Part shown: positions 1-47,000 of the stretch, one piece after another
Position numbering within the stretch: the first letter of the stretch is position 1
Layout of the letters: each line of letters opens with the position of its first letter
Origin: a virus
Lineage: Duplodnaviria > Caudoviricetes
IMG/VR virus record: IMGVR_UViG_3300032083_001406
Location: 1,617-65,616 of that record
Length of the DNA: 64,000 bases
Reading direction: 5' to 3' (one strand)
Notes under the pieces: model-generated
Databases searched by the model: none
What the model was told of the DNA's origin: nothing
Seen by the model: the letters and a program-made list of their open reading frames with translations, nothing else
Position numbers and translations under genes: made by a program

Positions 1-114
1 ACCTGCATTATTAGCATTTAATCTAACATCTTTCATTAAATCTTCTATTAATTCCTTAACGGTGAGTATATTGCTATTTACTTGTCTTTCGATACTAGAT
101 ACTGATTTATTCAT
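1..114 (-). CDS. hypothetical protein, 5' part (runs off the window edge)
   Basis: ATG at 114 opens MNKSVSSIERQVNSNILTVKELIEDLMKD...; a promoter-like ACAACCTTTATATC lies upstream on the minus strand (~161-175). Confidence 0.5.
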   Translation of the reverse strand, partial: MNKSVSSIERQVNSNILTVKELIEDLMKDVRLNANNAG

Positions 115-670
115 AATACCATTCAAACGTATCGCCCTATTCTAATGTATTTCAAAGATAGATATAAAGGTTGTGGGGGTATAACATTTTAACCATATCA
201 TTCAAACTAATTAATTCATTATTATTAATTGATGATTAATGCCTTTATTGATGTAATTGATGCCTTTATTATTGGTTATTTATGCTAAAATGGTCAATAA
301 TAAATTATTGATAAAAAAATAAAATTTGGAACAAAGCCATATGGTTGTAAAGAAATTATGAAAGTTGCATAATTAATTTGATTTAATCGTTTTTAAGCAA
401 TAAGGGGCTATTATCTAGAGTATAATAACCTTAATCAGCAATAAATCTATATATATTCAATGTTGCCTATATAGTTACATAACTGTTTAAAGTCATGTTA
501 TGCAACCTGCATTGACATATTAACACCATATGGTTGTTTAATAGAACATTAATATTGTTCTTTCCGATAAATAGTGTTTTATTAAAAAGGGAGGGAGGGG
601 CTAAAAAAAGGCCGAAACCAAGCAGTTTTTATGGTCTTGCTTAGGACTCGCACGTTTGAGGGTTAAAGGC

Positions 671-1012
671 TCAATTCTCTTCCAAATGAGGGAATTGTTG
701 CTTCAAAGTGTCAATGCACTCTTGAAGGCATAGCCTCGCTCCTTTGTCTGTTTCAGCATTGAACAAAGCACGTTCAAGTGAATAGAGAGTCAAAAGAGGC
801 ATTTTGTCTTGAGAGATAGGAAACGATAAATCCCCACGCTCAAAACCCTGTAATTCATCACAACGGGCAATAAATCGCTCTTTATCGAAGTTCTTACCAA
901 AACGGTCTAAAACGCCACAAAGACGTTCAACCATTGACTCATCAGTACCCATTAATTCTTCATTAGCCACAAACTCGGCAAATGCTTCAAAGTGTTGTGT
1001 TGTTAATGACAT
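671..1012 (-). CDS. hypothetical protein
   Basis: 113 aa ORF, last gene of a 3-gene minus-strand unit, GGAGG SD. Confidence 0.75.
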   Translation of the reverse strand: MSLTTQHFEAFAEFVANEELMGTDESMVERLCGVLDRFGKNFDKERFIARCDELQGFERGDLSFPISQDKMPLLTLYSLERALFNAETDKGARLCLQECIDTLKQQFPHLEEN

Positions 1013-1306
1013 TTATTCTTCCTCCAGCGTATAACCTTCGGGAGCGATAATAATACCTTTTCCGCCTTCTTCCCATTCACCATGCCAACGATTCTCTCTA
1101 AAAGCCTGTTTAAGTCTAGAAACAACATATCTTCCTCGATTCTCTGCATATTGGCGTTGATTGTGTATCATACCACGACTATGAGGATGAGTTAAGATAT
1201 TGAGCATAATGCCCTTATCTAGTTCCAAAGCCATGAATGCTTCTACAACGTGTTTCTGTATTTTGTTCAATTGTTCAATTATTTCATTTGGGATATATTT
1301 CATCAT
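1013..1306 (-). CDS. hypothetical protein
   Basis: 97 aa ORF coupled to upstream gene by ATGA overlap. Confidence 0.75.
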   Translation of the reverse strand: MMKYIPNEIIEQLNKIQKHVVEAFMALELDKGIMLNILTHPHSRGMIHNQRQYAENRGRYVVSRLKQAFRENRWHGEWEEGGKGIIIAPEGYTLEEE

Positions 1307-1533
1307 TCTTCACCTACTGCTGTTTGAGTTCCAGAGACAATAGTAGTAACAGCCCTTCGGTCAATTAATACCCTTAGTAGGGAATCCATATCAATTTCTA
1401 AAGCATAGTATTCTTCACCAGTTGAGGTTTCCCACTTTTGGCATTCTTTCAATGCTTCAATATTTAGGCTGATTTTCACCTTTGTTTTATCTGTTCTTCG
1501 TCTTACATATCCTATTAATTTTGGTTCTTCCAT
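1303..1533 (-). CDS. hypothetical small beta-rich protein
   Basis: GGTGA SD before ATG 1533; TATA-like CCTTATATAACCC upstream. Confidence 0.75.
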   Translation of the reverse strand: MEEPKLIGYVRRRTDKTKVKISLNIEALKECQKWETSTGEEYYALEIDMDSLLRVLIDRRAVTTIVSGTQTAVGEE

Positions 1534-1560
1534 GTTTTTCACCATTTATGAGATTCAATT

Positions 1561-1635
1561 GGGTTATATAAGGTTGTGTCTCAAAAGCGCACAACCATAT
1601 GGATGTCTTTGCATCCTCGTTAAGTACCCTAACCT
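1561..1635. promoter_or_regulatory. divergent archaeal-type promoter pair flanking a CCATATGG palindrome
   Basis: minus strand CCTTATATAACCC (1561-1573); plus strand TTAAGTACCC (1620-1629); palindrome at 1595-1602. Confidence 0.65.
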
Positions 1636-1688
1636 ATTCTAATGAACGGTTTATGGTGAGATTAGTCATCCAATATGGAGGAATAAAC

Positions 1689-2198
1689 ATGAATACAGAA
1701 AAATGGAACACAAAGAAACAATTAATCGTTGCTTATGTAGAGAACACAGACGTTGGTAGTTTTGCACCAATTGTTATGGGTACTGTCGCATTAGTCGATG
1801 AAGCGCAAACTGATGAAAGCCGACAAACTCTAGTAGAATCTATTAGAGCGATTTTCAAGACAATTGACCCTAATAAGATAAGTGGAGCCTTTCGTACAGG
1901 AAAGCAGCCTACACTTCCCGCTAGTGTCCTTTCAGTTCTAATGACCATTATGGCTACTGTTAATGCAAATCTTCAAGATTTGTTCAATTCAGACCATATG
2001 GCTAACCTTTTGATACCTCACGGTAAATCAAAAGATATGGGCGATTTGTTCTCAGATTCTGAACAATACGCTGAATACGAATCAAAGCGAATAGAAGCCC
2101 GCTTGAATAAGTGGTATCGTTCCAAAATTTGGGATGGTACGCTTAAAGGCTTACAAACACTAAATTTCCCTTCAATGGAGGTTGAAGAGGAAGAATGA
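1689..2198 (+). CDS. early protein, paralog family copy 1
   Basis: GGAGG SD; shares RTGKQPTLPA, PHGKS, WDGTL and an acidic tail with 4853-5401 and 6222-6704. Confidence 0.8.
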   Translation: MNTEKWNTKKQLIVAYVENTDVGSFAPIVMGTVALVDEAQTDESRQTLVESIRAIFKTIDPNKISGAFRTGKQPTLPASVLSVLMTIMATVNANLQDLFNSDHMANLLIPHGKSKDMGDLFSDSEQYAEYESKRIEARLNKWYRSKIWDGTLKGLQTLNFPSMEVEEEE

Positions 2199-2237
2199 TG
2201 GCAAATCTCACCATAGGCCACCTTTTAGTCCCAATAT

Positions 2238-2310
2238 GGGGAAAACGACCAATAGAATACGAATTAAAATTTACAATAAAATTATTCTGGTCGTTTTCCC
2301 CTGTTTTTTT
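2238..2310 (+). terminator. long hairpin plus T-run
   Basis: GGGGAAAACGACCA ... TGGTCGTTTTCCCC followed by a T7 run. Confidence 0.65.
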
Positions 2311-2358
2311 AAATAAGGTTGTATGCAAAGACATACAACCATATGGTAGTCTTTGCTA

Positions 2359-2377
2359 CCTCATTAAGTACCCCAAC
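2359..2377 (+). promoter_or_regulatory. TATA-like promoter
   Basis: CCTCATTAAGTACCCCAAC, near-identical to the promoter at 1615-1633. Confidence 0.6.
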
Positions 2378-2391
2378 AGAATTACTTGAAC

Positions 2392-2658
2392 ATGGAATCC
2401 CCATTTAAACCAATAAAGAAAGAATTAGGAGACATTGTATTCCAAGACGGAACAGTTTCTGTTACTGAAACATATGTCTTTAACAACCACATAGAATTAG
2501 AAGATTTACACGACTATCTTAAGTCCCTCAATAATCAAAAATATGAAATTTTAATTCATTTAGACAGAAAAGAAATAGCACTCACATATTATGTTAATTA
2601 CTTTCAACACGTTGAACTCTATCCAGAATTCAAAGTTAAAGGAGATGAAGAAGAATGA
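2392..2658 (+). CDS. hypothetical protein
   Basis: ORF starts just after the promoter (possibly leaderless), ends GDEEE with ATGA overlap. Confidence 0.7.
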   Translation: MESPFKPIKKELGDIVFQDGTVSVTETYVFNNHIELEDLHDYLKSLNNQKYEILIHLDRKEIALTYYVNYFQHVELYPEFKVKGDEEE

Positions 2659-2786
2659 GAAAATCAGCAACAACCTCCGTTGAAGAATTTGCCCTTGACT
2701 TTACTATTTGGATTCAAGAAACACATCCAAAGATATTCTTTGACCTACTAGCAGCCTATAATGGAAATAAGGGGGAAGAAGAATGA
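2655..2786 (+). CDS. small hypothetical protein (43 aa)
   Basis: MRKSATTSVEEFALDF...GEEE, ATGA-coupled at both ends; below ORF-track cutoff. Confidence 0.55.
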   Translation: MRKSATTSVEEFALDFTIWIQETHPKIFFDLLAAYNGNKGEEE

Positions 2787-2923
2787 CTCAAGTAATACTC
2801 TCAATGGGAGAACATATCAGAATTATAACTGAATTATGTTCTGAATATGACCATAGATATGCAATGCTTTCATGTAAAAAATGTAAGCCATTAAGAGATG
2901 GAAGTCCATTTGGATTAATTTAA
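2783..2923 (+). CDS. small Cys/His protein (46 aa)
   Basis: MTQVILSMGEH...CSEYDH..CKKC, ATGA-coupled. Confidence 0.5.
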   Translation: MTQVILSMGEHIRIITELCSEYDHRYAMLSCKKCKPLRDGSPFGLI

Positions 2924-3407
2924 TCCAAAGTTCAGTCATAGAGGACTGATGAATTACCACACTCTATGCAATAGGGGTTTGCCTAATTAAAAACTCGATA
3001 CCGAAGGGCTACGGCACTTTTTGTTCATCAATTAGTAATGCCGAGAATGAGCGAGTTCCCCATTTTTTTCCAAAATAACAAACCGTTCCCTACGGACACA
3101 ATTAGAGTTATTAGACGCATTTTCGTTGAAGCGGGGCTAAGACTATGTTAGACGTTGAAAGCCATTAACACGAATAAAGGAACAACCAGTTATTTAGAAC
3201 CAAAATCATGTAAGTTACAATCCAAACGATTGAAAGAGCCCCGCCAGTTCAATTTAGTCCTTTTGTAACCTCTGCATGATGGCGGTTTTTGCATTATTTT
3301 TATTTCTTAAGGTACACAAAGAAGTACCATATGGTTGTATCAGTTGTTATTGGTCTTTCTGTTAATATACATGATACAGGGGGGGAGGGGCTAAAAAATG
3401 AAAAAGT

Positions 3408-3436
3408 ACCCCCTCAAGACCTGAATCTTGAGGGGG
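3408..3436 (-). terminator. hairpin terminator
   Basis: CCCCCTCAAGA/TCTTGAGGGGG stem with a T-run on the minus strand. Confidence 0.65.
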
Positions 3437-3488
3437 TCGGCATTTGCATGAATAAATTCATACAATTTCAAACATCGAATGTTTGCAA

Positions 3489-3857
3489 TCAAAGTGTATC
3501 TTGATTCAAAAAGTCAAACTTTGCTTTGATTTTCGCAAGTTCTTTCTCTGCTTTGGTCAATGGTTCCGAAACTGGGGACAAATCAAGAGTTGATTTGAAA
3601 TTCCATGTTTGGTCTACTTGAACGGCTTCAACTGTGTATTTCTCACGACACACTTCTCTTTTGAGATTTTCCAATTTTACTTGGTTCTTTCCTCTAACCG
3701 TTCCACCTTGACGAACCAATGCAGTTATTTTATCCATTAACCTCATTCGGTGCATATTGTTTTTTTCCTTGCATACTGCAAGAGCGACGTGCTTTTTTGC
3801 ATAGCACTTCACTAGTTCTCCAGTTTTCACATTTATTACGTTGTGATGTTCAGACAT
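3489..3857 (-). CDS. hypothetical basic protein
   Basis: GGAGGT SD before ATG 3857; CCCTATATACCC promoter upstream. Confidence 0.75.
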   Translation of the reverse strand: MSEHHNVINVKTGELVKCYAKKHVALAVCKEKNNMHRMRLMDKITALVRQGGTVRGKNQVKLENLKREVCREKYTVEAVQVDQTWNFKSTLDLSPVSEPLTKAEKELAKIKAKFDFLNQDTL

Positions 3858-4007
3858 ATTACTACCTCCATCCATAATAATCTATTAGGGTATATAGGGT
3901 GTCGTTATACTTAATTCAAAGCATCACACCATATGGTAATAGGCTTTTGTATATTACCTTATATAATATCCAATTATTCTATAATTACCTTACAGGAGGT
4001 AAAACAA

Positions 4008-4541
4008 ATGGAAGAAAAACCAGAAATAGAAGAAGAAAAGAACAGAAAAGCCACAATGGAAGACGTTGAAGCATTAGCGAAAGAAATAGGAGTAAGCAAA
4101 ACAGGATGCTCCTATAATTCATTCACGATTGCTTTAGTGCATTTCATTAACAACCTAATGCAACACACATTAGCGAGTCAAAGCGTAAACCTTGAATGCC
4201 TAAAGATTCTAGTGGGAGAACCTATGTCCACACTTCAAGAAATAGAGACACTTTGGAAGAAACATAGTGATTTGCTCAGGGCAGAAAAGAAAAGAAAAGA
4301 ATACTTTGAGAAGGAAGCAGCCAAAATTAATGAAGAGTTAAGACAACTTAGACGTGAAGTGGAAGATTTTCTTAACTCTGAGTTAGAAAATGCAATCCTC
4401 GCTAATGGAATAAAGAGCGAAATGCTTTCTATTGCTAGAGGTCATAGCAATGAAATGTCGTTTTCTGCTATGCTAACAGATGCGGCATATTCAACCCGTG
4501 AAATCTACAAAGGGTTCATCTCAGAAAAGAACCGCAGATAA
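4008..4541 (+). CDS. hypothetical coiled-coil protein
   Basis: GGAGGT SD; promoter CCTTATATA at ~3957; charged helical sequence. Confidence 0.75.
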   Translation: MEEKPEIEEEKNRKATMEDVEALAKEIGVSKTGCSYNSFTIALVHFINNLMQHTLASQSVNLECLKILVGEPMSTLQEIETLWKKHSDLLRAEKKRKEYFEKEAAKINEELRQLRREVEDFLNSELENAILANGIKSEMLSIARGHSNEMSFSAMLTDAAYSTREIYKGFISEKNRR

Positions 4542-4579
4542 TCGAGTTTAAGGTAAATCAGACTTAATACCTGTGTAAC

Positions 4580-4615
4580 GGGGGATAGAGAGTAAATAGG
4601 GCTCTCTATCCCCCA
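4580..4615 (+). terminator. hairpin
   Basis: GGGGATAGAGAG/CTCTCTATCCCC stem after 4541. Confidence 0.55.
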
Positions 4616-4852
4616 AATTCGAGGCTGTATTACCTAAAGACCATTACAACCATATGGTTTGCTTTGCCATCGAAGATAAACCTCGAATTTGAAAAAAAAA
4701 CTGAACGAGTCGCTTTCAAACAATGAATTGAACAATTCCTACTTGAACCAGCCTCAAAACAGGGCGTGGCGAGATTATTATTCATTGTTTGAAAACGACC
4801 CGTTCGTAAAGAATGGGTGGCCGTTGAGCATTAGCCATCAATTCACCAAAAC

Positions 4853-5401
4853 TCACTCTTCTTCTGATACCTCCATATCAGTAGAATCGTTTGTTTCGGT
4901 TTCCGACTTAACTGGTGCTACCATACCAGTCATGCCGTTTTTGTCGAGAGTTCCATCCCAACGCTTTCCGTTCTTATCTCTAAAAGCAGAGATAAGATTA
5001 GATTCAGCCTTATCTGCAAAATATTGAGCAAAAGACTCTTGGGTGTAGTTTCCGCCAGTTTTACCGTGAGGGAGGATTGTCTCAAGGATAACAGGGCAAG
5101 AATCAATAAGGGCTACAAAGGCAGTATGAACCGCTTTCGCAACAGAATTGACATTTACCATGATTTCTGCTGGAAGGCTTGAACGACGACCTTGACGCAA
5201 TTGCAAGCCTTCGACGTTTTTTACCATAGCACGAATAGAATCCCAAAGGTTTCCACGACTTTCATCGTTGGATGTTTCGGAACGGCCTTGTTCGGCTTGA
5301 AGGGTTACAATAGTACCTATGTTCCCTATATCGTTCATTTTCATAAAAGCCTCAATTGGCTCTAATCTTTCGTTAAATTTATCTAATGTTAGTTCACTCA
5401 T
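4853..5401 (-). CDS. early protein, paralog family copy 2
   Basis: RQGRRSSLPA, LPHGKTGG, WDGTL, EVSEEE; promoter CCTTAAGTACCCC at 5480-5492. Confidence 0.8.
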   Translation of the reverse strand: MSELTLDKFNERLEPIEAFMKMNDIGNIGTIVTLQAEQGRSETSNDESRGNLWDSIRAMVKNVEGLQLRQGRRSSLPAEIMVNVNSVAKAVHTAFVALIDSCPVILETILPHGKTGGNYTQESFAQYFADKAESNLISAFRDKNGKRWDGTLDKNGMTGMVAPVKSETETNDSTDMEVSEEE

Positions 5402-5669
5402 ATGTTTCACTTCCGTTTGTTTCATGTTTTTTGGTGCGTTTGATGTTTAATGCTCAACGACTGTTCATAGGAAACTCATGGGGTACTTAAGGTGGAAACA
5501 AAGACTTCCACCTAATTATAACCTATTAACTTAACACTATATGGGTATAATATTTTGTACCTACGTCAAAGCCTCATTTTATTAGGTATATTCCAATTGG
5601 GTTTATACAAATAAGTATAGTTATACAATATCGTATAAGATATAACTATACTATAACTAAAGTAAATCA

Positions 5670-6130
5670 TTATTCTAACGCTGTGGAGGGGCTAGAATAA
5701 AACAAAGGTTGAGAAACTGGAGGGTTGTGCAACAGAAGTAGAGAGAAATTAAATATTTCTAATATTCTAATATTCTATACTATACTACTACTACTACTAT
5801 GTGTGTTATTAATTGTTATAGGGATAGGGTGGGAGATAGAGAGAGTAAGAGGGGGCATTAGAATAATAGAATAAAAAATAATGTTGCGAAAATGACAGTT
5901 TCGCAGAGTTATAGCAGGGCTGTGTTGCATAACCTATAATTTAAGCAGACTAGAATAACCTCGCTCAGATTAGAAACATCAGAATTTTTTTCTAATAAAT
6001 ATGCTTTGTTAAAATATCAATTAATTTTAATGGGTTTGAATTACACATTGTCAGATTTTTGTGCTGAATCTATTGACAGAATTGATTGAACAAAGAAAAT
6101 ACTTTAGAAAGTTTAGAAAGATTAGAATAA
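5670..6130. repeat. AT-rich non-coding region with about 13 TAGAA/TTCTA repeats and a (CTA)n tract; candidate replication origin
   Basis: e.g. TTCTAATATTCTAATATTCTA at 5757-5777, TTAGAATAATAGAAT at 5858-5872, TTAGAAAGTTTAGAAAGATTAGAAT at 6103-6128; no ORF. Confidence 0.45.
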
Positions 6131-6221
6131 TCATCTGTTCTGAATCGAATCATTCAATTCATTACTCCTTATATATGGGTAATACTTAGGAAGTTTGCCT
6201 TCGGGCAGTAGTTGAAAAATT

Positions 6222-6704
6222 ATGGAAGAAATGGACTGGAACAGTTTGAAAATTGAAATAGAAGAATACCTTGAAGCAGATACCCTACTTGATGGCGGAT
6301 TACGCCAAATTGTAGAGTTGCACCTTCAAGTTGGAACAGAAAACCCAAATGAGCGAGATGCGGCACACAACGCATTAAAGGCTCTATTGCGTGGCCGTGA
6401 TGGAACACCTTTCCGTCGAGGTCAAAAGAGCAGTATTCCTGCCGCAGTTAGAGTTGCAACCGATAGAATTTGTAATGTAGTTAATGAGGCTGTATTGTCT
6501 TATTACAATCATGACCCTATTATCGGAGCAATCTCCTTTAAACACGCAAAATCTGGTGGAGGAAACTTTGACTCCGCAGACGAATTTGCTGCTTCATGGG
6601 TTAAGAAAACTCGAAACTCCCTTAACAGTCAATATAAGGCTGGAACTTGGGATGGTTCAGTAGATAGTCTTCTATCCTCTGAAACCGTTGAAGAAGAACT
6701 TTGA
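6222..6704 (+). CDS. early protein, paralog family copy 3
   Basis: RRGQKSSIPA, KHAKSGGG, WDGSV, TVEEEL; promoter CCTTATATAT at ~6167. Confidence 0.8.
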   Translation: MEEMDWNSLKIEIEEYLEADTLLDGGLRQIVELHLQVGTENPNERDAAHNALKALLRGRDGTPFRRGQKSSIPAAVRVATDRICNVVNEAVLSYYNHDPIIGAISFKHAKSGGGNFDSADEFAASWVKKTRNSLNSQYKAGTWDGSVDSLLSSETVEEEL

Positions 6705-6752
6705 GTATAACTCTAAGTTTGTAATCTAATAAACTGTGTTTATTAGAGGCCG

Positions 6753-6788
6753 AATGGGGGGAGTTTCAGGACTCCCCTCATTCCTTTT
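6753..6788 (+). terminator. hairpin terminator
   Basis: GAATGGGGGGAGT...ACTCCCCTCATTC followed by TTTT. Confidence 0.55.
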
Positions 6789-7041
6789 CATGGGAGTTTG
6801 TTCGGTAATAAGGTCTTGATACCTCTTTGGTCGTCATATTCTGGTGGTAAGAACAATTGACCTTCCTCCCTCCTTTTTAAATCCTATTACAGATAATAGG
6901 TCTTTGTAGATTTGATGGGTTCGCTGAGCGTCGGACTCCTTAAGTACCCCACCGCCTCTCGGTGATTGTTAATAGTGAATTGTATCAAATAACGACATTA
7001 AATGTTATTTGTATTCATTCTAAGACTTAAACTCTTAATCT

Positions 7042-7126
7042 GTGGGAATATCCGAGTTTGGTCAAAGGAGCAGGGCTTAAACTCCTGTGCATATTCGCTT
7101 CGCAGGTTCAAATCCTGCTTCCCACA
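7042..7126 (+). tRNA. trnL: tRNA-Leu(UAA), long variable arm, CCA not encoded
   Basis: acceptor stem GTGGGAA/TTCCCAC, anticodon arm CAGGG-CTTAAAC-TCCTG, T arm GCAGG-TTCAAAT-CCTGC. Confidence 0.9.
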
Positions 7127-7248
7127 CTTCATGGAGAAGTTGAGCAAAGGTGGCCGTTTTAACGATAAACGATTAATTACCTCCCCCGTATAATTAATCG
7201 TATTGCTCCTTCTCCGCCTATTCCACTCTAAATAAGGAGGTAACAATA

Positions 7249-8685
7249 ATGATAACAGGAACAAAACAACAAGAAGAAATATGGAATGAATTAGAAAATG
7301 GAACCGACGATGTAATTGTAAATGCTGGTGCTGGAACTGGTAAGACTTTTACAATCGTTGAAGGTTCAAAGAGAACAAATGGAAGCAATATGGCTTTCCT
7401 TTGTTTTAATAAATCTATTCAAACTGAATTAGCAGAAAGACTTCCAGATAACGTAGTTGCAAAAACATTTCATGCACTTGGATTTGCGGCACTTCGTTCT
7501 GCTGGAATTAAAACAAGAGTAAATAACTATAAAGTAAAGAATATCATTGATGATATTCTAGGTAAAGATTTCAATGCTTTTCCTTTGGTTAAACTCATTG
7601 GACTAGTTAAGGGCTCATTGGTTGATGGTGATGATAAGAAAACTATCTTCCAATTGATTGATAAGTACAATATTAACTTTGAATCAGATAGAGAAGAAGA
7701 AATGGCTATTAATGCTATTCCTGCTATCTTGACACAATGCCGTCGTAATCTTGCAATGATTGACTTTGATGATATGATTTGGATTCCTATTGTGGAAAAC
7801 TTCCCATTACCTACATTCGATGTTCTATTTGTAGATGAAGCGCAAGACTTCAATGAAATGCAAAGAGAGTTGATTTTTAGATGTGTGGGTAATAACAGAG
7901 TCGTAATTGTAGGGGATAAAAACCAAGCAATTTATGGATTTAGAGGTGCTGACAGTAATTCAATCTCTATTTTTAAGCAAGAACTTGAAAGTCGTGGAAG
8001 AAAAGTCAAGGAATTTCCTTTGTCTCTAACATGGCGTTGTCCTAAATCGGTTGTTAAAGAAGCAAATCGTTTCGTAGCCGATTTTGATTGTAAAGAAGAT
8101 GCTGATGAAGGTCGAGTTATTGTAGATTCGCCCTTTAATCCAAGCGAAGGAGATATGGTTCTATGTAGATATAACGCTCCTTTGGTAAGTGCTTTTTACG
8201 AATTAATTATGCAAGGTAAATCTGCTTATGTTCTAGGTCGAGATATGACTAAAGGGCTAATTAATGCAGTAAATAAGATTACAAAGAATGGAAATATGGG
8301 TTCTGAAGAATTCATGCAATTGCTTGAGCAAGATTTCCATTATAATTATAATCGCTTGCTTAAACTTGACAAAGTAAATCAAGCGCAATCTCTTGAAGAT
8401 AAGTACGAATGTATTCGTATCTTTGGTACTAAGGCAACAACTGTTAGCGGTATTATTGCAGAGATTAAAAGAGTCTTTGATGGTAATGAAAAGGGAGAGA
8501 TTATGCTTTCTACTGTTCATAAGTCAAAAGGACTTGAAGCAGATAATGTTTATATTCTAGCAACTGAGAGAATGCCTCATCCGAAGGCTTCTGATATGCA
8601 AGAAGAATTAAACATTTGTTATGTGGCTATTACAAGAGCAATTAAGACATTGCATTATTGTGGGCCAAAACCAAATAGTAGGTGA
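7249..8685 (+). CDS. UvrD/Rep-like superfamily 1 helicase
   Basis: AGAGTGKT, TFHALG, VDEAQD, VGDKNQAIYGFRGA, STVHKSKGLE, YVAITRA. Confidence 0.95.
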   Translation: MITGTKQQEEIWNELENGTDDVIVNAGAGTGKTFTIVEGSKRTNGSNMAFLCFNKSIQTELAERLPDNVVAKTFHALGFAALRSAGIKTRVNNYKVKNIIDDILGKDFNAFPLVKLIGLVKGSLVDGDDKKTIFQLIDKYNINFESDREEEMAINAIPAILTQCRRNLAMIDFDDMIWIPIVENFPLPTFDVLFVDEAQDFNEMQRELIFRCVGNNRVVIVGDKNQAIYGFRGADSNSISIFKQELESRGRKVKEFPLSLTWRCPKSVVKEANRFVADFDCKEDADEGRVIVDSPFNPSEGDMVLCRYNAPLVSAFYELIMQGKSAYVLGRDMTKGLINAVNKITKNGNMGSEEFMQLLEQDFHYNYNRLLKLDKVNQAQSLEDKYECIRIFGTKATTVSGIIAEIKRVFDGNEKGEIMLSTVHKSKGLEADNVYILATERMPHPKASDMQEELNICYVAITRAIKTLHYCGPKPNSR

Positions 8686-11175: not shown

Positions 11176-11460
11176 ATGAATAGAAATAAAGCAGTAAGAA
11201 GAATAAAAGAAATGTTACAAGACCCATATGGTAGTGGTTCAATAGATGCGGTAAAGGCACTATTTCAAGCACTAATGCATTGTGGTGTAGGATATACAGA
11301 TAATAGAAAGGATAGGAAAAGTTCAAACTTCGGTTGCCTTGATTTAGGTAATCATGAAGCACTAATGACTGTTCTAACAGATAGAAATACTATTAGAGAA
11401 TTAGTTCGCCAATACTATTATAAGTTTGATAAAGAAGTATATGGAGATGAGGAAGAATGA
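11176..11460 (+). CDS. hypothetical protein
   Basis: GGTGA SD, ends GDEEE. Confidence 0.65.
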   Translation: MNRNKAVRRIKEMLQDPYGSGSIDAVKALFQALMHCGVGYTDNRKDRKSSNFGCLDLGNHEALMTVLTDRNTIRELVRQYYYKFDKEVYGDEEE

Positions 11461-12119
11461 ATATATTTGCATTATCAAGATGTCCAGTAGAATCAGCACA
11501 ACAAATGTTAGATAAACACGTTGTCAAAATGCCAACAGAAACTTGTCAAATGTTGCATACTAATCAATTGTATTTCATATACAAAGGAATTTATGGTGTT
11601 GAGCCTTCTCTTAAAGACTTGAAGGTGTTTCATACAGAAAGTAATTCACATCTAATGAAACCTGCAATGTTAAATCATCCCAGTACAATATGGGCTAGAC
11701 AATCTGCTAAGAATTTTTCTTGGTTGTTTGAACATGGTATTGCTCTTTGTGATGAATATACTCATAGGTATGGTAAAAAACATGGTGCTAAAGAAAGAAT
11801 TCTAATGACTCATTTTCAAAATGAAACCAAACCTAATTGGCCTCATAGTGGATTAACTCCTGTAACTATTGCTATGTTAGATAAATATAGATTAGATGAG
11901 AAGCAATATTCACAAAGAAATCCTAATTGGACAGGTTGGGACTTTGTAATCGACAGTTATCGACATTATTACCTTGAAGGTAAATGGCGATTTGCTGAAT
12001 GGAGAATGGATAGAAGACCAGATTGGTTTCCAACCAATCAATATGAAATTAAATACAATGAGTGGGCATCAGCATTCAATAAAAATCATGGTGCAAATAT
12101 AAAATTAATGGAAGTGTAA
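11457..12119 (+). CDS. pyrimidine-dimer DNA glycosylase (DenV-like) family protein
   Basis: MNIFAL...AQ...DKHVVKMPTETCQML...NHPSTIWAR...LCDEYTHRYGKKH. Confidence 0.8.
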   Translation: MNIFALSRCPVESAQQMLDKHVVKMPTETCQMLHTNQLYFIYKGIYGVEPSLKDLKVFHTESNSHLMKPAMLNHPSTIWARQSAKNFSWLFEHGIALCDEYTHRYGKKHGAKERILMTHFQNETKPNWPHSGLTPVTIAMLDKYRLDEKQYSQRNPNWTGWDFVIDSYRHYYLEGKWRFAEWRMDRRPDWFPTNQYEIKYNEWASAFNKNHGANIKLMEV

Positions 12120-12656: not shown

Positions 12657-12731
12657 GGGCGTATGGTGTAATGGATAGCATTTTGGCCTTCTAAGCCGAA
12701 GATACGGGTTCGATTCCTGTTACGCCCACCA
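12657..12731 (+). tRNA. trnR: tRNA-Arg(UCU), CCA encoded
   Basis: acceptor stem GGGCGTA/TACGCCC, anticodon arm TTGGC-CTTCTAA-GCCGA, GGTTCGATTCC T arm, ACCA end. Confidence 0.95.
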
Positions 12732-33347: not shown

Positions 33348-35030
33348 ATGATAATAAGTAAACTAGATACAGGAAAGCATATCTATACATCGTATAGAAA
33401 GGATGGAAAGAAGATTGAGAATATAGAAGAGTTTAAGCCCTACTTCTATATTCTCAATTCAGAAGTTCAACCTAAGTATTACAAACCTTCTAAGTATTTA
33501 ACTAGAGAGTTTGAATATGAAGAAGGAGATTGGGTCAATCTTCAAAAGCAAAAACTAACTAAAGTATATGTAGATAATTCTTATGATATGCATATTGCTA
33601 AGAAATCTTTTCATAAAACTTATGAAGCAGATGTATCTTATACCTTTAGATTTGCAGTAGATAAATTAGCAGTATTACCAGAATATGAAATGCATAAATG
33701 GTATTGGGATATGGAATGGCAACAAGGTGGAGAACATCATGATGAAATCACCACTATTGTAGCGTATGATAATTATGATAAGAAGTATTACCAATGGGTT
33801 TGGTTTCCTAATGAAATAGACTATAATCTTGTTGATAGTCCTATTAATAAAGATGAAAAACAAATAGGAAGAAAATATACATTTGATAATGAAAAAGATA
33901 TGATTCAATCCTTTATGACAACAATGGCTGTAAAAGACCCTGATATGTTAATTGCTTGGTTTGGGTTGAAATTCGATTTACCTAAACTCCTTGAACGTGC
34001 GTGTGCTTTGGGATTGAACCCCACTATCATATCGCCAATTAATATCGTTAAGGGTGTTAAGAAGGTCAAGGATGGCTTTAGATTCAAGTATGGTGAAAAT
34101 GGGTTCGGTGCTATCGAACAGCCGATAGGAGGCCGCATAACCCTCAATTTAGACCTTGCTTTTGAACGTCAATGGAATGATTCACAAAGAGGAACATTAC
34201 CATCAATGTCTTTAAATTATATTTCTGAATCAGTTTTAGGTAAAGAAAAGTTAGTTAGTGAGAAATTTCCTGACCCTAACGAGTTTTATCGTAGAGCATG
34301 GTTAGAAGATACTGAAACGTATTTGAAGTATGCTTTAGTGGATGTCGAGTTAATGGTTGAAATTGATGAATTAAATTATTGTAGTGAAGCAATTATAGCA
34401 TTACAAAGATTATTGATTGCACCATTTAGTGCTTGTTTTTATGCTAGTCATATGGGTTCAATCTATTTTATGCGTAATGCAGAATGGATTGCTCCTACTG
34501 GAGAAAAGGTAGATAAGCGTCAAGAATATGATGGTGCTATGATTTATGACCCATTAAGTGAAGGAACAAACGGATTACATCTTAATGTAGCCGCTTTTGA
34601 TTTTGCAGGGCTATATCCTAGTATGATGATTTCAAGGAACATTTCATGGGAAACTAAATCAAATGAGCCTACTGAATTTGGTGCTAATCTATCTACTCCT
34701 AGAGACTTTAGTATTAGTGATAAGAAACAAATGTTGTATTATAAAACTGATAAGTTGGGTCTATTACCTAGAGCAGTTCTTGATTTGAAAGAGTTGCGAA
34801 ATGAATATAAGCGACTTATGAGAAAGGCAAGAGATGAGGATAACAAATCAGAATATGTTAAGTGGAATAACAATCAAATGGCAGTAAAGCGATTAATGGC
34901 ATCTTTTTATGGCATTGTTGCTTTTCAAGGATTTGGTTGGGCTGATGTAGATTTAGCCGCTAGTATTACTGCTAGTGCTAGAGAAGCAATTCGTTTAGCC
35001 GCATTTAAAGCAAAGGAGATGGAAGAATGA
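33348..35030 (+). CDS. polB: family B DNA polymerase, N-terminal part (exonuclease, motifs A and B)
   Basis: WDMEW, FDLPKL, YALVD, FDFAGLYPS, KRLMASFYG. Confidence 0.93.
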   Translation: MIISKLDTGKHIYTSYRKDGKKIENIEEFKPYFYILNSEVQPKYYKPSKYLTREFEYEEGDWVNLQKQKLTKVYVDNSYDMHIAKKSFHKTYEADVSYTFRFAVDKLAVLPEYEMHKWYWDMEWQQGGEHHDEITTIVAYDNYDKKYYQWVWFPNEIDYNLVDSPINKDEKQIGRKYTFDNEKDMIQSFMTTMAVKDPDMLIAWFGLKFDLPKLLERACALGLNPTIISPINIVKGVKKVKDGFRFKYGENGFGAIEQPIGGRITLNLDLAFERQWNDSQRGTLPSMSLNYISESVLGKEKLVSEKFPDPNEFYRRAWLEDTETYLKYALVDVELMVEIDELNYCSEAIIALQRLLIAPFSACFYASHMGSIYFMRNAEWIAPTGEKVDKRQEYDGAMIYDPLSEGTNGLHLNVAAFDFAGLYPSMMISRNISWETKSNEPTEFGANLSTPRDFSISDKKQMLYYKTDKLGLLPRAVLDLKELRNEYKRLMRKARDEDNKSEYVKWNNNQMAVKRLMASFYGIVAFQGFGWADVDLAASITASAREAIRLAAFKAKEMEE

Positions 35031-35526: not shown

Positions 35527-35717
35527 GTAAAGAAATAAAAGAATTAAAAGAAGAGGTTAAAAACCTTAAGCAAATAATCAAGAGACTTGAAGTAGAAATA
35601 GATGAAATATGTAATTCTAATGTAACTATTCATTCTCTTAATAAGGATATGAAAATCATTAAACAGGAACTGATGAAGTATTCTGAAGGAAAACTGTATT
35701 TTGAAAACGCTTGGTGA
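35523..35717 (+). CDS. small coiled-coil protein
   Basis: heptad pattern; GGTGAT SD. Confidence 0.6.
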   Translation: MSKEIKELKEEVKNLKQIIKRLEVEIDEICNSNVTIHSLNKDMKIIKQELMKYSEGKLYFENAW

Positions 35718-35721
35718 TATA

Positions 35722-36609
35722 ATGAAAGTAGTTTATGGACATACAGATTCTATCTATGTTCAGATTGATTCTATCGAAAAGGCTGAACAGTCAATCAAAG
35801 AGATTGAAGCATCAGTTAGAGAACATTTTCCTAATGTATTGGGATTGGAAGAACACCCAGTTGTTCTCGAATTTGAAAAGTATTATTCTGCATTGGGAGT
35901 AGGAACGACAAAGAATAGAAATGCAGGTTTAGTATCATGGGAAGATGGAGTTTGGCTTAAGGAGCCTAAGTTCACTATGACTGGTTTTACTGCTAAAAGA
36001 GTAAGTGAGACTAAACTAGCAAAGGATGTCCAAACCACAGTATTAAAAATGTGGGTTGGGCAAAAGGATATAAAATCTATCAATAAATATTTATCTGATA
36101 AATATAATGATGTAATAAATGGTAAGTTAGAAACTCCTGACATCATTAAAAGAAGTAGATTGAGAGAAGATAGAGTTCTTCTAAAATGTCCAGAATGTAA
36201 TAAGAAACACCATCTTAAAGAATGTATTAAGATTAAGTGGTGTGATAAGTGTGGAACTGAAACAGAGCAATTTGTTACATTTACACACAAAAGACCTGCT
36301 ATCGGTTCGGGTATCGCAGGTATTCTTTATGCTTGGGAAAGATTAAATATGACCTTTGATGACTCGTATTTATATCTGAAGGTAAAGGATGTGCATGATA
36401 CATATACTCATCCTTTGACAAAAGTTCAAAGAAATGTAGATTATGTGTCTGCTACAACCTATGAGGATTTTGCAGATTATACTCCCGATTATAAACACTA
36501 TGCAGAACAGATAGTAAAGAAGGCCGAACCTATTTATCGAGCAATGAATTGGGAAGTATCTTCTATAAGAACAGGAAAAATACAAATGAAATTAGACGAA
36601 TGGTGGTAA
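35722..36609 (+). CDS. polB: family B DNA polymerase, C-terminal part (motif C, thumb)
   Basis: VVYGHTDSIY, LEFEK, KNRNAG, Zn insert CPEC...CDKC, PIP-like QMKLDEWW; GGTGAT SD. Confidence 0.92.
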   Translation: MKVVYGHTDSIYVQIDSIEKAEQSIKEIEASVREHFPNVLGLEEHPVVLEFEKYYSALGVGTTKNRNAGLVSWEDGVWLKEPKFTMTGFTAKRVSETKLAKDVQTTVLKMWVGQKDIKSINKYLSDKYNDVINGKLETPDIIKRSRLREDRVLLKCPECNKKHHLKECIKIKWCDKCGTETEQFVTFTHKRPAIGSGIAGILYAWERLNMTFDDSYLYLKVKDVHDTYTHPLTKVQRNVDYVSATTYEDFADYTPDYKHYAEQIVKKAEPIYRAMNWEVSSIRTGKIQMKLDEWW

Positions 36610-43696: not shown

Positions 43697-44047
43697 TTAT
43701 TCCACCTCTAATAAGAAAAAGACTTCTAAATTTTCATTTGATGCAAATGGCCCGATTCCATCAAAATTAACTCTTGCTAATAAATTATTAGACGAATCTA
43801 AGATACCATATTCTCTAATTACTTTACCTGTCATACTAGCAGATGAACCTTGAAAAACCGCTTGAACTTCTACTACATTAGTGTCTGATTTTATCGCATT
43901 GAATACTGAAGTTGCAGTAGTTAATGCAACATCTAAGGTTGTTGCGGCAGGACTAGTTGAATTGCCACCTTGACCAATTTTTCCACTATTAATAGCAGTA
44001 CCTTGTATATATGTAGCGACTAATTCTTTTAATTTATCTGTAATCAT
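43697..44047 (-). CDS. tail/baseplate structural protein
   Basis: IGQGG...IREYGILD...LLARV, a pattern of tail-collar/baseplate domains. Confidence 0.6.
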   Translation of the reverse strand: MITDKLKELVATYIQGTAINSGKIGQGGNSTSPAATTLDVALTTATSVFNAIKSDTNVVEVQAVFQGSSASMTGKVIREYGILDSSNNLLARVNFDGIGPFASNENLEVFFLLEVE

Positions 44048-47000
44048 TCTAATTCCTCATCAAGTAAAGTAGTGTATGAAAGGCTCCCACCTAACGCTCC
44101 TAGAGGCGAGGTTTCCGTATTTAATGGTATCGAGAAACCTAATGGGAATCCAGTTGTAGGGAAAGTTTTCTTTCTAATTAACACCCTTAAGCCTTTAACT
44201 TTCATATCTTCTAAAAAGTCCAGACTCTCTGATTCTTTAAAAGATTGATTTCTTACCTTAGAATTAATATTTTTATTATCTATTAATAATTCAGCAAACC
44301 TATCTTCTAATCCTTTACTATATTTACCCAGTTCTAAAACCATCAATCCAGTTAATAGGTATTCTATTTGTAATACCATGTAATGATTTAAAGGAATGTT
44401 TTCTCTAGGTATTTCTAAACCAATAATATCCCCTACTTTTATTTGAGATATGTTTTCATGTCCAACAGTTACCTTAAGTTTTTTATTTTTGGCAGAATGC
44501 AATCTAAGCAATTTAGAGGCTTCTTTATTTACATCTTCTTGAGTAGTTAATTTATCCTCAAATACTTCTAAAGCCTTCAATCCTTTTTCGTTAATGCTTC
44601 TTATATCTTTTCTAGTTTTCTTATGATTACGGCCATATACTGTAATTTGATTATAGAAGTTAAACATATTTTTAGATTCTTCAAAGTCATATATTTGATA
44701 TTTGCCAGTTTCATTAAGAACAATGCCCTTATAGAAAGTAGCGTCATTTCTATTCTTAATCTTGAACACTTCGTTTTCTTCAAATAGTGTCATATCTTTT
44801 TGTTCTAATAGATAATTAATTGCAGAGAATAAATCAACACCTTGATAATTGGGTGCTAAGAATAAAGGATAGTCGTCATTTGTCATTTCAAATTCAATAT
44901 TATTTTCTTCTAATAGTTCATTAATTAAATCTTCAGTTTCGTTTGCTATTGTAGCAGTTGTTCCAATACAGGCTCTTGTTGGGGTTATTTTTAAATTGTC
45001 AAATACCTGTATTGTAAAGGTTTGGCTTAAAGATACTATCCCTTTACAGAAAAATGGCTTTGAAATATTGCTTATTGCTGGCGTTGTTGTTTTCTCTTGA
45101 GTTCTAACATTAAGATTTATTTTTTTACCATTTTCACCATCGGTGGCATATAATGGATAGTCATTATCCCCAGTAAATAGTTCGCTGTATATTTTAGTAT
45201 TATCCCTTATAATTAAGTGGTCATCGGTAGTTTGCTTATCAGTATCTAACATAACATACATAGATAAAAATGCTTCATTTTCGTGTAAGTTAGATATACC
45301 ACTTTGATACAAGTATGAAGATTTTATATTATAAGTTTTATCTTCATCCATCACTTTAGTATATCTGCTTGATAATTTATTAAAAGTAATCTCTTCTGGA
45401 CTAAAATCATACATACATACTTCATTAGGTTGCATGATTCTATATGCTCTATCATCAGTCAATTCTTTATCTGTTATTAAGATATGAGTTTCGTGATTAC
45501 TTGGGTCTATTTCATGTGAAACAACATAAACAATATCTTCTGGAAATCGTTCATTCATGTACGTTACTCCAGTTTCAGTTCCAGTAGTTCCTAAAATAGC
45601 ATCTTTTTCCATAACCAAATAACAACCAGTTAAATCCATAAACTGCAAAAATTCATTTTTACCATCTACATCTAATGTGTTTTTTCTTAAGTTACCATTT
45701 GAAGATGCAATAGTGGCATTATCGGTTCTACTACTAGTATCAATCCATAATCTACATTTAAATCCTAAAATTATACCATCTACTGCAAAGGGAATACTAT
45801 CTGCGTGATTCTCTGCGCTTGTATCTCCGACATGAGTAAAGTCTTTAAAATGATTACCACTTTTAACAGTAAAGAAATTATCAGGAGATATTGCGAATTC
45901 AGCACCAGTAGTTAAAACATCCGAAACATTTCCTTTTTCTAGTTTATACTTACCTCCATCTCGTATATCATATCTATTTAAGGCAACTGCCATAGTTCCT
46001 TCATAGTAGTCATTATCATTGTCAAGACTAGTTATCATATTACCAAAGACTCTACATTCAGAAGTAGTAGCAGTAGTTCCCGATATTCCAGTTATTCCCG
46101 CTTTACTGAAAGGTAAAATTATTTCAGAATCAGTTGGCAAAGAAACAGGATTTGACCCATCAAAACCATTTCCTTGTGTTTTAAAGAATTTAGACTCATC
46201 TGGCATAACCGCCCCAAGATGTTTTCTACTTACATTAATAGCCCTACCAGCAGGTAAGAAATTTTCTCCTTTAAATGGAGTTTCAGGATTCCATGCAAGT
46301 GCTTCTACTGATTTATAAATAGTTCCAGAAGAAAGAACTACATTACTTCCAGAAATGCTAGTATATTTAACATCTGCTGAAAAGGTGTGAATGTTAGAAG
46401 TAGTAGGAGTAGAAGCATTATTTACCTGACCTATTAAGTTACCTTCATCATCTATTAATTTATCTCCATTTGCTAATGCTATACTTCCTGTAAATGTTAT
46501 TTTGTTTCTATCCCCGCTATTATGTTGAGTAGTAGTAGCACCGACATCTATATTTCCCACGCTAGTATTATTAAAGAAATGGAAATCTATATTAGGAGAT
46601 GCGGCTATTCTACTTTCTAATTCCTTTTCAGGGTTAAACGGATTATACAAAAAATCAAAACACATTTCTGTGAGCCTCATCATACCTACTCTTTTAATAT
46701 TATTAGTAAAATCAGAGGTACTGATAGGAACGGTTTGATAATTAATGTCTTGTAGTTTGATTCTATTACCACTATTATCGTCTAAAGTATTATCTTTTAT
46801 TGAAGTGTTCTCAATCAAGTGTAAATTATAATTAGTTATGTCCTTAGTTCCATTAAATAGACTATCTTTTCTTAGGGAAGAATAAGGTAAAACGTCAGAA
46901 TTAATATATAAAAATAACCTATGATATGAATTATCTATGTTTTTAATAGCGTTTTTTCTATGTATTAATTTGTCAGACTCCACCAATATTCTAGTTCTTT

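Follow-up and report, generated by a model that had tools for sequence, protein, structure and literature searches.

A recurrent palindrome at the boundaries of exchangeable gene cassettes in magroviruses

Hyperplastic regions in the genomes of T4-type phages contain promoter–stem-loop (PeSL) cassettes, composites of a promoter and a stem-loop that mediate modular shuffling, according to those sections of the original description on which we draw (Arbiol et al., 2010; PMC2839356). In the haloarchaeal myovirus HGTV-1, a motif consisting of a TATA box plus an inverted repeat stands before open reading frames (ORFs) and has been interpreted likewise (Sencilo et al., 2013, as excerpted in PMC3950731). 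Here, we describe an array of small gene cassettes bounded by the 8-base palindrome CCATATGG (termed here the core) in a 64-kb stretch of viral DNA, referred to throughout as the window: this is the whole of the sequence analyzed, and corresponds to bases 1617–65616 of the 65.6-kb contig IMGVR_UViG_3300032083_001406, which is estimated to be 71% complete. The virus is a group-B magrovirus; magroviruses rank among the most abundant viruses of archaea in the surface ocean, and both they and their hosts are uncultivated. Comparisons among related genomes show, at the level of sequence, that the cores form conserved boundaries between cassettes and that, as these viruses diverged, it was there that cassettes were gained, lost and inverted.

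The array shares with PeSL cassettes, to which a further paper by Comeau et al. from 2014 (PMC4122927) is reportedly devoted, the repeated occurrence of intergenic promoter and stem-loop composites in which the stem-loops overlap promoter elements (the promoters of the array being predicted), a concentration in a hyperplastic, ORFan-rich region, and the occurrence of insertions, deletions and replacements at the motifs when related genomes are compared. It differs in that its promoters are of the archaeal type, with a TATA box and a B recognition element (BRE), whereas T4-type phages use sigma-70 promoters; in having an invariant palindromic core of 8–10 bp, with which PeSLs have not been described; in that its copies share only ~8–13 bp of identity; and in that its cassettes lie in both orientations and include inversions. 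Circular forms of the cassettes (mini-circles) are a further trait of PeSLs. HGTV-1, as far as the excerpted description goes, provides the parallel of an archaeal tailed virus with a TATA-like box and an inverted repeat before many small ORFs, for which its authors proposed roles in the shuffling of the genome as well as in the control of transcription. Elements of this kind are thus already known from PeSLs and the HGTV-1 motif. What is new here is the invariant symmetric core, the paired and co-varying arms and the avoidance of full symmetry, as well as direct comparative evidence for inversions and for insertions and deletions (indels), and the spread of the element across a whole abundant group of uncultivated archaeal viruses. 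The main texts of those magrovirus papers that were searched make no mention of such a motif; and among the matches listed for a full-text literature search with CCATATGG, there was no archaeal-virus paper, the titles looking like unrelated primer or cloning-site contexts.

Recurrence of the core and exchange among relatives

The palindrome CCATATGG occurs nine times in the window, compared to a mean of 0.71 in 100 dinucleotide-preserving shuffles (maximum 4; none reached nine). Eight of the nine copies lie within positions 331–5545, and seven of these are intergenic (337, 526, 1595, 2339, 3327, 3929 and 4650; Table 1). An earlier, sequence-only reading of this DNA had described these seven copies as far above chance expectation and as enclosing complete units oriented –, +, +, –, +, –, and both statements were borne out, the first by the shuffles and the second by the positions of the ORFs. 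The copy at 1994, which was absent from the list given in that reading, sits within ORF 1689–2198, and the copy at 11224 sits within ORF 11176–11460. There was no further CCATATGG in the 1,616 contig bases to the left of the window.

Relatives were recruited through the helicase gene situated 2.5 kb downstream of the array, loci being fetched with up to 10 kb of upstream sequence and the best 80 of 212 being used. Among the 43 loci with at least 4.3 kb upstream of the helicase, on which the conservation count is based, CCATATGG was, in 41, the most frequent 8-base palindrome of the upstream sequence (jointly so in L042), with 2–10 copies each, and these 41 loci cover helicase identities of 47–89% and GC contents of 0.32–0.46. 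Downstream of the helicase start, only two copies are present in all 43 loci taken together, and in whole records of relatives, 7 of 7, 6 of 7, 6 of 6 and 8 of 8 copies were found inside the array, with a reversed control pattern scoring 0; the motif is thus kept in the homologous regions of relatives. The left arm of the anchor site (CTTTGTTCCAAATTTT..., adjoining core 1) is itself kept in the seven anchor sites compared, i.e., those of the window and six relatives.

Locus L014 forms one of two exceptions, retaining only the anchor site plus degenerate CCATATGC and CATATG copies; 10 of the 12 ORFs called between its anchor and its helicase lie on one strand, the other two encoding 51 and 59 amino acids. 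In the same locus (L014:3799–8200), we observed cassettes pointing nearly all in one direction, with GC-rich stems bearing C-TTT-G or GAAA loops, followed by T-runs, at their ends. The other exception, the distant relative L069, was considered as the bearer of an analogous array and set aside: its tandem CATGAGCT repeats occur at one place only and are unrelated.

Relatives differ from one another by whole cassettes. A 702-bp cassette stands between two cores in L008 where L009 has a single core, and the same relation holds for a 173-bp cassette in L036 (one core in L039) and a 518-bp cassette in L049 (one core in L065). The non-coding mini-cassette at 345–525 of the window, which is also present in L013, L008 and L009 but not in L010 and L011, has an equivalent of 163–223 bp in some relatives and is precisely absent from others. 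In all four indel cases, similarity to the relative extends along both flanks as far as the core, and the additional cassette has arms of its own.

Cassettes also differ in orientation. Those at 1595–2339 and 3929–4650 of the window are inverted in L008 and L009, with homology starting 4–8 nt from the core center, and of the 57 inverted matches bracketed by cores in both genomes, 26 stand in mirror register with their bounding cores to within 15 nt. Taking all matches together, 96 of 666 match ends inside the arrays fall no more than 15 nt from a core center, compared to 4.6% of random positions, the other ends being mostly places where similarity fades. Seven of the 16 cassette families present in at least three loci occur in both orientations, with the largest (the F0 paralogs) divided 27 to 31. 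Furthermore, L038, which is 97–98% identical to L037, carries ~300 bp inserted in a core, such that hybrid cores CCATATGC…GCATATGG are left on either side, a pair that therefore locates the exchange inside the central CATATG. There are also counter-examples: the pairs L055/L057, L046/L059 and L010/L011 differ by indels or replacements inside cassettes.

Gene content and orientation thus differ between relatives, with breaks in or within a few bases of the cores, rather than order and orientation being kept and breakpoints lying away from the motif, and cassettes bounded by exchange sites therefore hold as an evolutionary pattern. On this comparative evidence, the palindrome marks the seams at which the array region of the genome is reshuffled. 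As for its tempo, L042 and L068 (99.9% identical) have the same arrangement, L049, L050 and L051 share the same pattern, and a contig from an independent study keeps colinearity with the window across four cores: switching, if any, is therefore not frequent. Joints within contigs (e.g., from ~348/349 to 4643–4649) were considered as a further source, but their shorter sides measure 19–40 letters (83 once), most being below 30, a length at which joints often stem from repeats or from other organisms, and nothing was drawn from them. The summed contig depth near 330 reaches 499–693, far above that of neighboring bins, which shows only that the anchor sequence is common to many contigs.

Architecture of the junctions

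To either side of the core extends an arm, and the 508 arms collected from the window and 40 relatives yielded 489 unique ones after L050 and L051 (duplicates of L049) and L069 (unrelated) had been dropped. The base following the core is T in 89% of arms, followed by weaker preferences for T/A, G/T, T and A, and no position is fixed beyond +5. Viewed as a whole site, the central CATATG is flanked by a conserved G/C and by T-T-G-T-A, with conservation fading past +5 and TTGT present on one arm only. The sequence-only reading had placed the core in a larger dyad, and part of that proposal stands: CTTTG occurs within 30 nt of the core in 347 of the 489 arms, compared to 5.4% of random 30-mers, at variable offsets that are mostly 4–10. 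Its two-sided flank does not stand, since ACAA/TTGT is found on both sides of only one of 223 junctions, where 18.7 would be expected.

Each arm forms an inverted repeat in which the bases from the core GG onward pair with outer bases ending in ACC, with C-TTT-G at or near the tip. Arm stems co-vary, their two halves fitting each other within an arm while the stem sequence changes from arm to arm: the longest perfect stem has a mean of 4.36 when an arm is paired with its own half and of 3.60 when halves are swapped at the same offset (315 arms; none of 200 permutations reached the observed value), and stems of at least 5 bp form in 35% of arms as opposed to 12% when partners are swapped. For 140 arm segments aligned with MAFFT, pair counts were dropped in favor of this permutation test, because the stems vary in length and register and make the alignment unsuited to such counts. 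Folded as single-stranded DNA, junctions 1595, 2339 and 3929 form two hairpins with ATAT unpaired between them (z-scores of –2.68, –3.75 and –1.58), and none of 200 shuffles was as stable as junction 2339. Five of the eight window junctions folded in this manner (seven cores plus the copy at 5537) have z-scores of –1.9 to –3.75; junctions 526 and 4650 are stabler than shuffles but adopt other shapes, and junctions 337 and 3327 were no stabler than shuffles. Around core 7, a 10-bp inverted repeat (AAATTCGAGG...CCTCGAATTT) encloses the whole junction.

An archaeal promoter comprises a TATA box preceded by a BRE, and archaeal transcription terminates at oligo-T stretches. Given an archaeal host, the TATA-like promoters and T-runs noted in the sequence-only reading therefore fit archaeal signals. 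Read by eye, what lies beyond an arm is either a CC(C/T)-TATA-like box, followed 35–70 nt on by a Shine-Dalgarno-like GGAGG and a start codon, or else the T-run of an arriving gene. Strict promoter patterns caught 24 of 224 arms and another pattern gave two matches, and statements about promoters therefore rest on reading the arm listings.

Classification of 223 intergenic junctions with a simple ORF caller gave 124 tandem, 45 divergent and 33 convergent junctions and 21 that were undetermined, in agreement with the earlier observation, made on the window, that sites occur at all three kinds of junction alike; the site is therefore not tied to any one of them. At least one promoter-side arm is present at 169 of the 223 junctions. 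Strand switches occur at 78 of 202 classified junctions. Such near-random orientation is unusual next to the flanking blocks, in which genes are strictly co-oriented.

The core is followed by TTGT in 29% of arms, as often on promoter sides as on terminator sides, and the appearance of TTGT on both arms of a single junction among 223 (one as opposed to 6.6 expected in a subset of 16 divergent loci) means that the fully symmetric 16-base palindrome is avoided at junctions. We can think of several causes for this avoidance, namely that it keeps the two arm hairpins from pairing with each other, that the site is polar, or that there is selection against a perfect palindrome. A model in which the TTGT arm gives the site polarity did not cleanly predict which cassettes are excisable or invertible. 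As a separate observation, the perfect 16-mer ACAACCATATGGTTGT is present in at least 120 bacterial contigs among prokaryote genomes, many of them from high-GC Actinomycetota or Acidimicrobiia, in which it might be the site of a regulator; the 80 loci listed among these matches come mostly from Actinomycetota, Acidimicrobiia and other bacterial metagenome-assembled genomes, and none of them from Poseidoniales.

The sequence-only reading had also included a degenerate copy at ~5537. A one-mismatch copy, CTATATGG, is indeed present there, but its status as a junction site is doubtful, because it has a 10-mer, TATATGGGTA, in common with the promoter region of the next conserved gene (6172–6181) and because the array ends at the equivalent of site 4650 in L008 and L009, the only relatives inspected for this feature.

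What the core may be for

The explanation that we rate best, and to which we give about even confidence, is that each junction is a composite promoter/terminator boundary of the PeSL kind, whose palindromic core is bound by a protein and serves also as a crossover point. It is preferred because PeSL cassettes and the HGTV-1 motif are the closest described systems. Each cassette would be a self-contained archaeal transcription unit with a BRE/TATA-type promoter, 1–3 small ORFs and an oligo-T terminator, and each boundary would be built in three layers: the invariant palindrome (A)CCATATGG(T) in the center; on each side an arm hairpin running from the core GG to an ACC that immediately precedes the TATA box or lies close to the T-run; and, outside the arms, a promoter that fires outward or else the terminator of an arriving gene. 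The invariance of the core probably reflects a sequence-specific dimeric protein, and this protein, together with the arm hairpins, may insulate or control the neighboring units. All junctions have this symmetric core in common, and, as genome comparison shows, breaking and rejoining the DNA within it therefore deletes, inserts or flips whole cassettes and leaves promoters and terminators undamaged. Exchange could then be a by-product of the general recombination and repair enzymes of the virus, acting on short homology and palindrome-prone DNA, and PeSL logic would have been moved to an archaeal virus, with the symmetric core adding inversion to the possible outcomes.

The proteins of one complete relative are compatible with such a source. 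The 33 proteins of its replication block include ERCC4, PD-(D/E)XK/Cas4-like, HNH, AAA_24, PC4 and ligase families (among the first 25 of 55 families), and the 37 proteins around its array gave Pyr_excise, pyrophosphatase and weak zinc-finger-like and Lar-like matches only. Judged from such matches, the virus appears to have general recombination and repair tools and no recognizable site-specific recombinase.

Several observations weigh against this composite boundary. Many loci are closely related, such that the counts of arms and junctions are not counts of independent events, and promoters and terminators were assigned by eye, with ORFs taken from a simple caller of our own. The ~8–13 bp shared by different junctions, whose arms differ, is very short for general homologous recombination. 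On the side of regulation, the distance from core to TATA-like box (~15–32 nt in the 24 arms caught by the strict pattern) is loose for a classical operator, the 33 sites at convergent junctions have no promoter to regulate, and the negative association between arms for TTGT is not predicted by a symmetric homodimer site. No regulator family was found among the 37 small proteins around the array of one relative, such that the core-binding protein is putative; a PHROG match named 'DNA binding protein' (11457–12119) was considered as the regulator and rejected, being a Pyr_excise (endonuclease V-like) protein. Finally, none of the 24 public runs containing the stretch, which are kept as contigs, is on record as RNA.

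Appreciably less probable, although a serious contender, is dedicated site-specific recombination at an 18-bp site, TACAAC-CATATG-GTTGTA, with a symmetric crossover of 6–8 bp, performed by an unrecognized viral enzyme or a host Xer-type recombinase. The outcome would resemble that of integrons, shufflons or pdif modules, and promoters and terminators would adjoin the sites only because the sites bound cassettes. This would account for exchange being confined to a core of 8 bp or less, with the hybrid CCATATGC…GCATATGG pair flanking one insertion, for a core that is invariant down to 47% helicase identity, for sites at convergent junctions and near-random orientation, for arms that are asymmetric and keep structure rather than sequence, as attC sites do, and for the fact that L014, which has an anchor core only, carries nearly all of its anchor-to-helicase genes on one strand. 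However, searches for tyrosine (PF00589) and serine (PF00239) recombinases at an E-value of 1 or less were negative in all five whole records of relatives (four of them at least 90% complete), the window's own record not being among those searched for PF00589, and the controls were positive (14 of 14 genomes for PF00589). In a 2025 paper on viruses of Poseidoniales, integrases are likewise given as absent, in the part of it that we cite. Among the families listed for 70 proteins from a single complete relative, none was transposase-like (the listing for the second set of these proteins covering the first 25 of 55 families). The shared arrangements of near-identical genomes (L042/L068 and L049/L050/L051) and the independent colinear contig, which make frequent switching improbable, count against a dedicated system as well, and a crude polarity test fits it poorly: sites flanking indels are direct repeats in only three of five cases judged by eye.

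The known systems of this type each match the array in part. Integrons rely on the tyrosine recombinase IntI, which recognizes attC sites, imperfect inverted repeats with R boxes, as folded single strands, and their cassettes are mostly promoterless, lie in one orientation and are expressed from a common promoter. Like integrons, the array has small mobile cassettes and hairpin-forming boundary sites that conserve structure over sequence, with asymmetric arms and a short invariant crossover motif. Unlike them, it has no integrase in the five records searched, its cassettes have their own putative promoters and terminators and lie in both orientations, and its invariant motif is a perfect palindrome, CCATATGG, between two hairpins, without a pair of R boxes. 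In shufflons and invertase switches (Rci, Hin/Gin/Cin), segments are split by short repeats and undergo only inversions, which switch within a clonal population. Several segments between short repeats in either orientation are common to both, but in the array, where no recombinase gene was found in the same five records, indels occur as well as inversions, whole transcription units move rather than alternative gene ends, and the assembled contigs give no sign of frequent switching within a population. The proposal in the sequence-only reading of integron- or shufflon-like recombination sites is thereby divided: exchange at the cores holds, and membership in either class is unsupported, given the lack of a recombinase in the records searched, the cassettes' own putative promoters and the co-occurrence of indels and inversions. 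The alternative offered in that reading, a binding site for a dimeric regulator, forms part of the explanation that we rate best.

The pdif modules on Acinetobacter plasmids are moved by the host recombinases XerC and XerD. Like the array, they consist of gene modules delimited by short sites with inverted arms and a 6-bp center, and they require no recombinase encoded by the element; the conserved arms here measure only ~5–7 bp, and the element is a lytic archaeal virus, not a plasmid. The archaeal XerA/dif site has two inverted ~11-bp arms around a 6-bp spacer in the part of the source that we use (PMC2958812), which is a point in favor of a dedicated system. If the dif site of Poseidoniales resembled TACAACCATATGGTTGTA, host Xer would be implicated. 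Somewhat more doubtful still is the specific proposal that this is an independently evolved cassette-exchange system, an analogue of integrons and shufflons, in which an enzyme of an unrecognized family or host XerA cuts and rejoins the invariant symmetric site at its central CATATG. Were it true, self-expressing accessory genes could be captured, dropped or flipped at will, and both the avoidance of symmetry and the co-varying arms would represent substrate requirements of the enzyme.

It is improbable that the palindrome is an operator and nothing more, i.e., a regulator's site for early promoters, with breakpoints coinciding with it only because intergenic breaks are the ones to survive. 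Early regions of viruses often contain regulatory motifs repeated between genes, the arms contain CTTTG, ACC and TATA-like elements, and most junctions have a promoter-side arm. However, breaks fall within the 8-bp core and not just anywhere between genes, in four independent indels the flanks stay alike as far as the core, inverted segments keep mirror register with cores, and some sites stand at convergent junctions. Very unlikely is a replication or packaging signal, or a mobile palindromic element spread through intergenic DNA in the manner of repetitive extragenic palindromic (REP) sequences or miniature inverted-repeat transposable elements: the array does lie at the divergence of leftward and rightward blocks, where GC skew changes sign, and palindromes with hairpin arms recall REP sequences and bacterial interspersed mosaic elements, but there are six to ten sites over 4–5 kb, one per boundary, with no origin-like cluster, the arm sequence is not conserved and therefore no element is being copied, and a separate TAGAATAA cluster at 5670–6130 is a better candidate for an origin.

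CCATATGG plus hairpin arms constitutes a simple sequence rule that delimits the accessory cassettes of magroviruses and shows where their genomes are remodeled. From it comes a catalogue of ORFan families, well over a hundred in number, that travel as self-contained units. The idea of a mobile regulatory cassette is thereby extended from T4-type phages to archaeal viruses, in which the symmetric core would also allow inversion. This raises the question of which protein reads the palindrome: if it is a recombinase or nuclease, these viruses would possess a compact recombination system with an 8-bp site.

Cassette genes and genomic setting

The arrays compared contain 181 cassettes with a median length of 678 bp, and their 253 cassette ORFs fall into 123 families, 89 of which are singletons: the array is hyperplastic and ORFan-rich. 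Nine proteins of the window were scanned, and none reached the Pfam cut-off, with sub-threshold matches only (E-values of 0.004–0.06); one of the nine gave a weak PHROG match of unknown function. All the cassette proteins scanned are without a family, and the early anti-host role proposed for such genes in the sequence-only reading is a conjecture. The features of the window's array are collected in Table 1.

Table 1. Coordinates of array features and tRNA genes in the window.
Feature	Position	Strand	Remarks
Core 1, anchor site	337..344		boundary with leftward gene block
Mini-cassette, non-coding, AT-rich, 181 bp	345..525		between cores 1 and 2
Core 2	526..533
Cassette of three overlapping small ORFs (1303–1545, 1013–1306, 671–1012)	671..1545	–	no Pfam/PHROG family
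TATA-like box TTATATAA of 1545–671 unit	1564..1571	–	just outside left arm hairpin of core 3
Left arm hairpin, core 3	1572..1596		stem GGTTGTG/CACAACC, ends in core CC; fold z –2.68
Core 3	1595..1602		divergent junction, putative promoters on both sides
Right arm hairpin, core 3 (GGATG-TCTTTG-CATCC)	1601..1616
TATA-like box TTAAGTA of ORF 1689–2198	1620..1626		after right arm hairpin of core 3
Cassette ORF, family F0	1689..2198	+	helical, acidic C-terminus; holds CCATATGG at 1994; inverted in L008 and L009
Long stem (GGGGAAAACGACC...GGTCGTTTTCCCC) and T-run	2238..2310	+	putative terminator of 1689–2198 unit, read directly
Core 4 (2339–2346) with arm hairpins 2317–2340 and 2345–2360	2317..2360		ATAT unpaired between hairpins
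Cassette of three small overlapping ORFs (2392–2658, 2655–2786, 2783–2923)	2392..2923	+
Core 5	3327..3334		convergent junction, gene ends on both sides
Single-ORF cassette	3489..3857	–
Core 6	3929..3936		divergent junction; right arm hairpin GGTAATA...ATATTACC, then TTATATAA
Single-ORF cassette, family F11	4008..4541	+	inverted in L008
Core 7, last exact core	4650..4657		convergent junction
F0-family ORF	4853..5401	–	putative promoter arm hairpin GGTGGAA...TTCCACC and TTAAGTA, ~5480–5515
One-mismatch copy CTATATGG	5537..5544		doubtful junction site
tRNA-Leu(TAA)	7042..7127
tRNA-Arg(TCT)	12657..12731

The F0 family has 58 members in the arrays of 34 relatives and three paralogs in the window (1689–2198, 4853–5401 and 6222–6704). 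Its proteins have invariant R, H, K, W and G residues, a PHGK(S/T)xGG motif, a WDG motif and an acidic EEE tail, and the AlphaFold model is all-helical with a mean predicted local distance difference test (pLDDT) score of 77.5. A Foldseek search of this model against the PDB gave nothing at an E-value of 0.001 or less; a relationship to Cas1/casposase, suggested by several entries only at E-values of 2.7–6.3 and TM scores of ~0.25, was discounted. VIA-align returned generic helical bundles only (Z no higher than 8), and the ESM Atlas returned hypothetical proteins only. Glutamate runs end many cassette proteins (ORF ends at 1306, 2198, 2658, 2786, 4853 and 6704), and their GAAGAAGAA glutamate codons double as a purine-rich stretch before the overlapping start codon of the next ORF (…GAAGAATGA…).

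Two parts of the array are devoid of obvious genes. Equivalents of the mini-cassette were seen in L008, L009, L013, L035–L039, L041, L043, L067 and L068, and it carries (T)CTATATAG(A) palindromes as well as long-range inverted ends; in other relatives, its place is taken by a spacer of 21–35 bp between two cores (29–43 bp from start to start). The ~400 bp between the 2392–2923 unit and core 5 (2924–3326) contain no ORF of at least 40 amino acids, and Rfam gave nothing above threshold there.

The window encodes a family-B DNA polymerase split into two genes (33348–35030 and 35701–36609), GroEL and a ribonucleotide reductase, together with an ATP-dependent ligase and a UvrD-like helicase. A split DNA polymerase B, GroEL, ribonucleotide reductase, tRNA-Leu and tRNA-Arg are given for group-B magroviruses in the portion of Philosof et al. 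(2017) used here, which assigns these viruses to Marine Group II (Poseidoniales) archaea. Because its gene content matches this combination, the window is assigned to a group-B magrovirus, a virus of marine Poseidoniales archaea, with the host taken from the literature. Among deposited phage records, the best matches to its polymerase come from haloarchaeal tailed viruses, at ~25% identity, and a nucleotide search of phage records with positions 1–8000 gave no match.

In one complete relative, the array sits exactly between a leftward structural block and a rightward replication block, and in the window GC skew flips sign at the array. Between the array and the next conserved gene lies a non-coding stretch of 680 bp that holds, at 5670–6130, six exact TAGAATAA copies, distributed over both strands, together with a number of ATTAGAATAAT-like repeats in inverted pairs; a similar 'ttagaaaattagaa' region was seen in L014. 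Adjacent to the GC-skew switch, this cluster is a candidate replication origin or regulatory region. The structural block of the window encodes a 2,026-amino acid protein on the minus strand (44044–50124), which was considered as a virion RNA polymerase; it had no Pfam, PHROG or PDB-sequence match, and nothing was concluded. Upstream of the window, contig bases 1–1400 (–1615 to –250 in window coordinates) hold a run of small minus-strand genes joined by near-identical sequence (…ccatgtcataataatcac…), whose proteins begin MTWK-like after an identical ribosome-binding stretch, and which look like a tandem paralog family.

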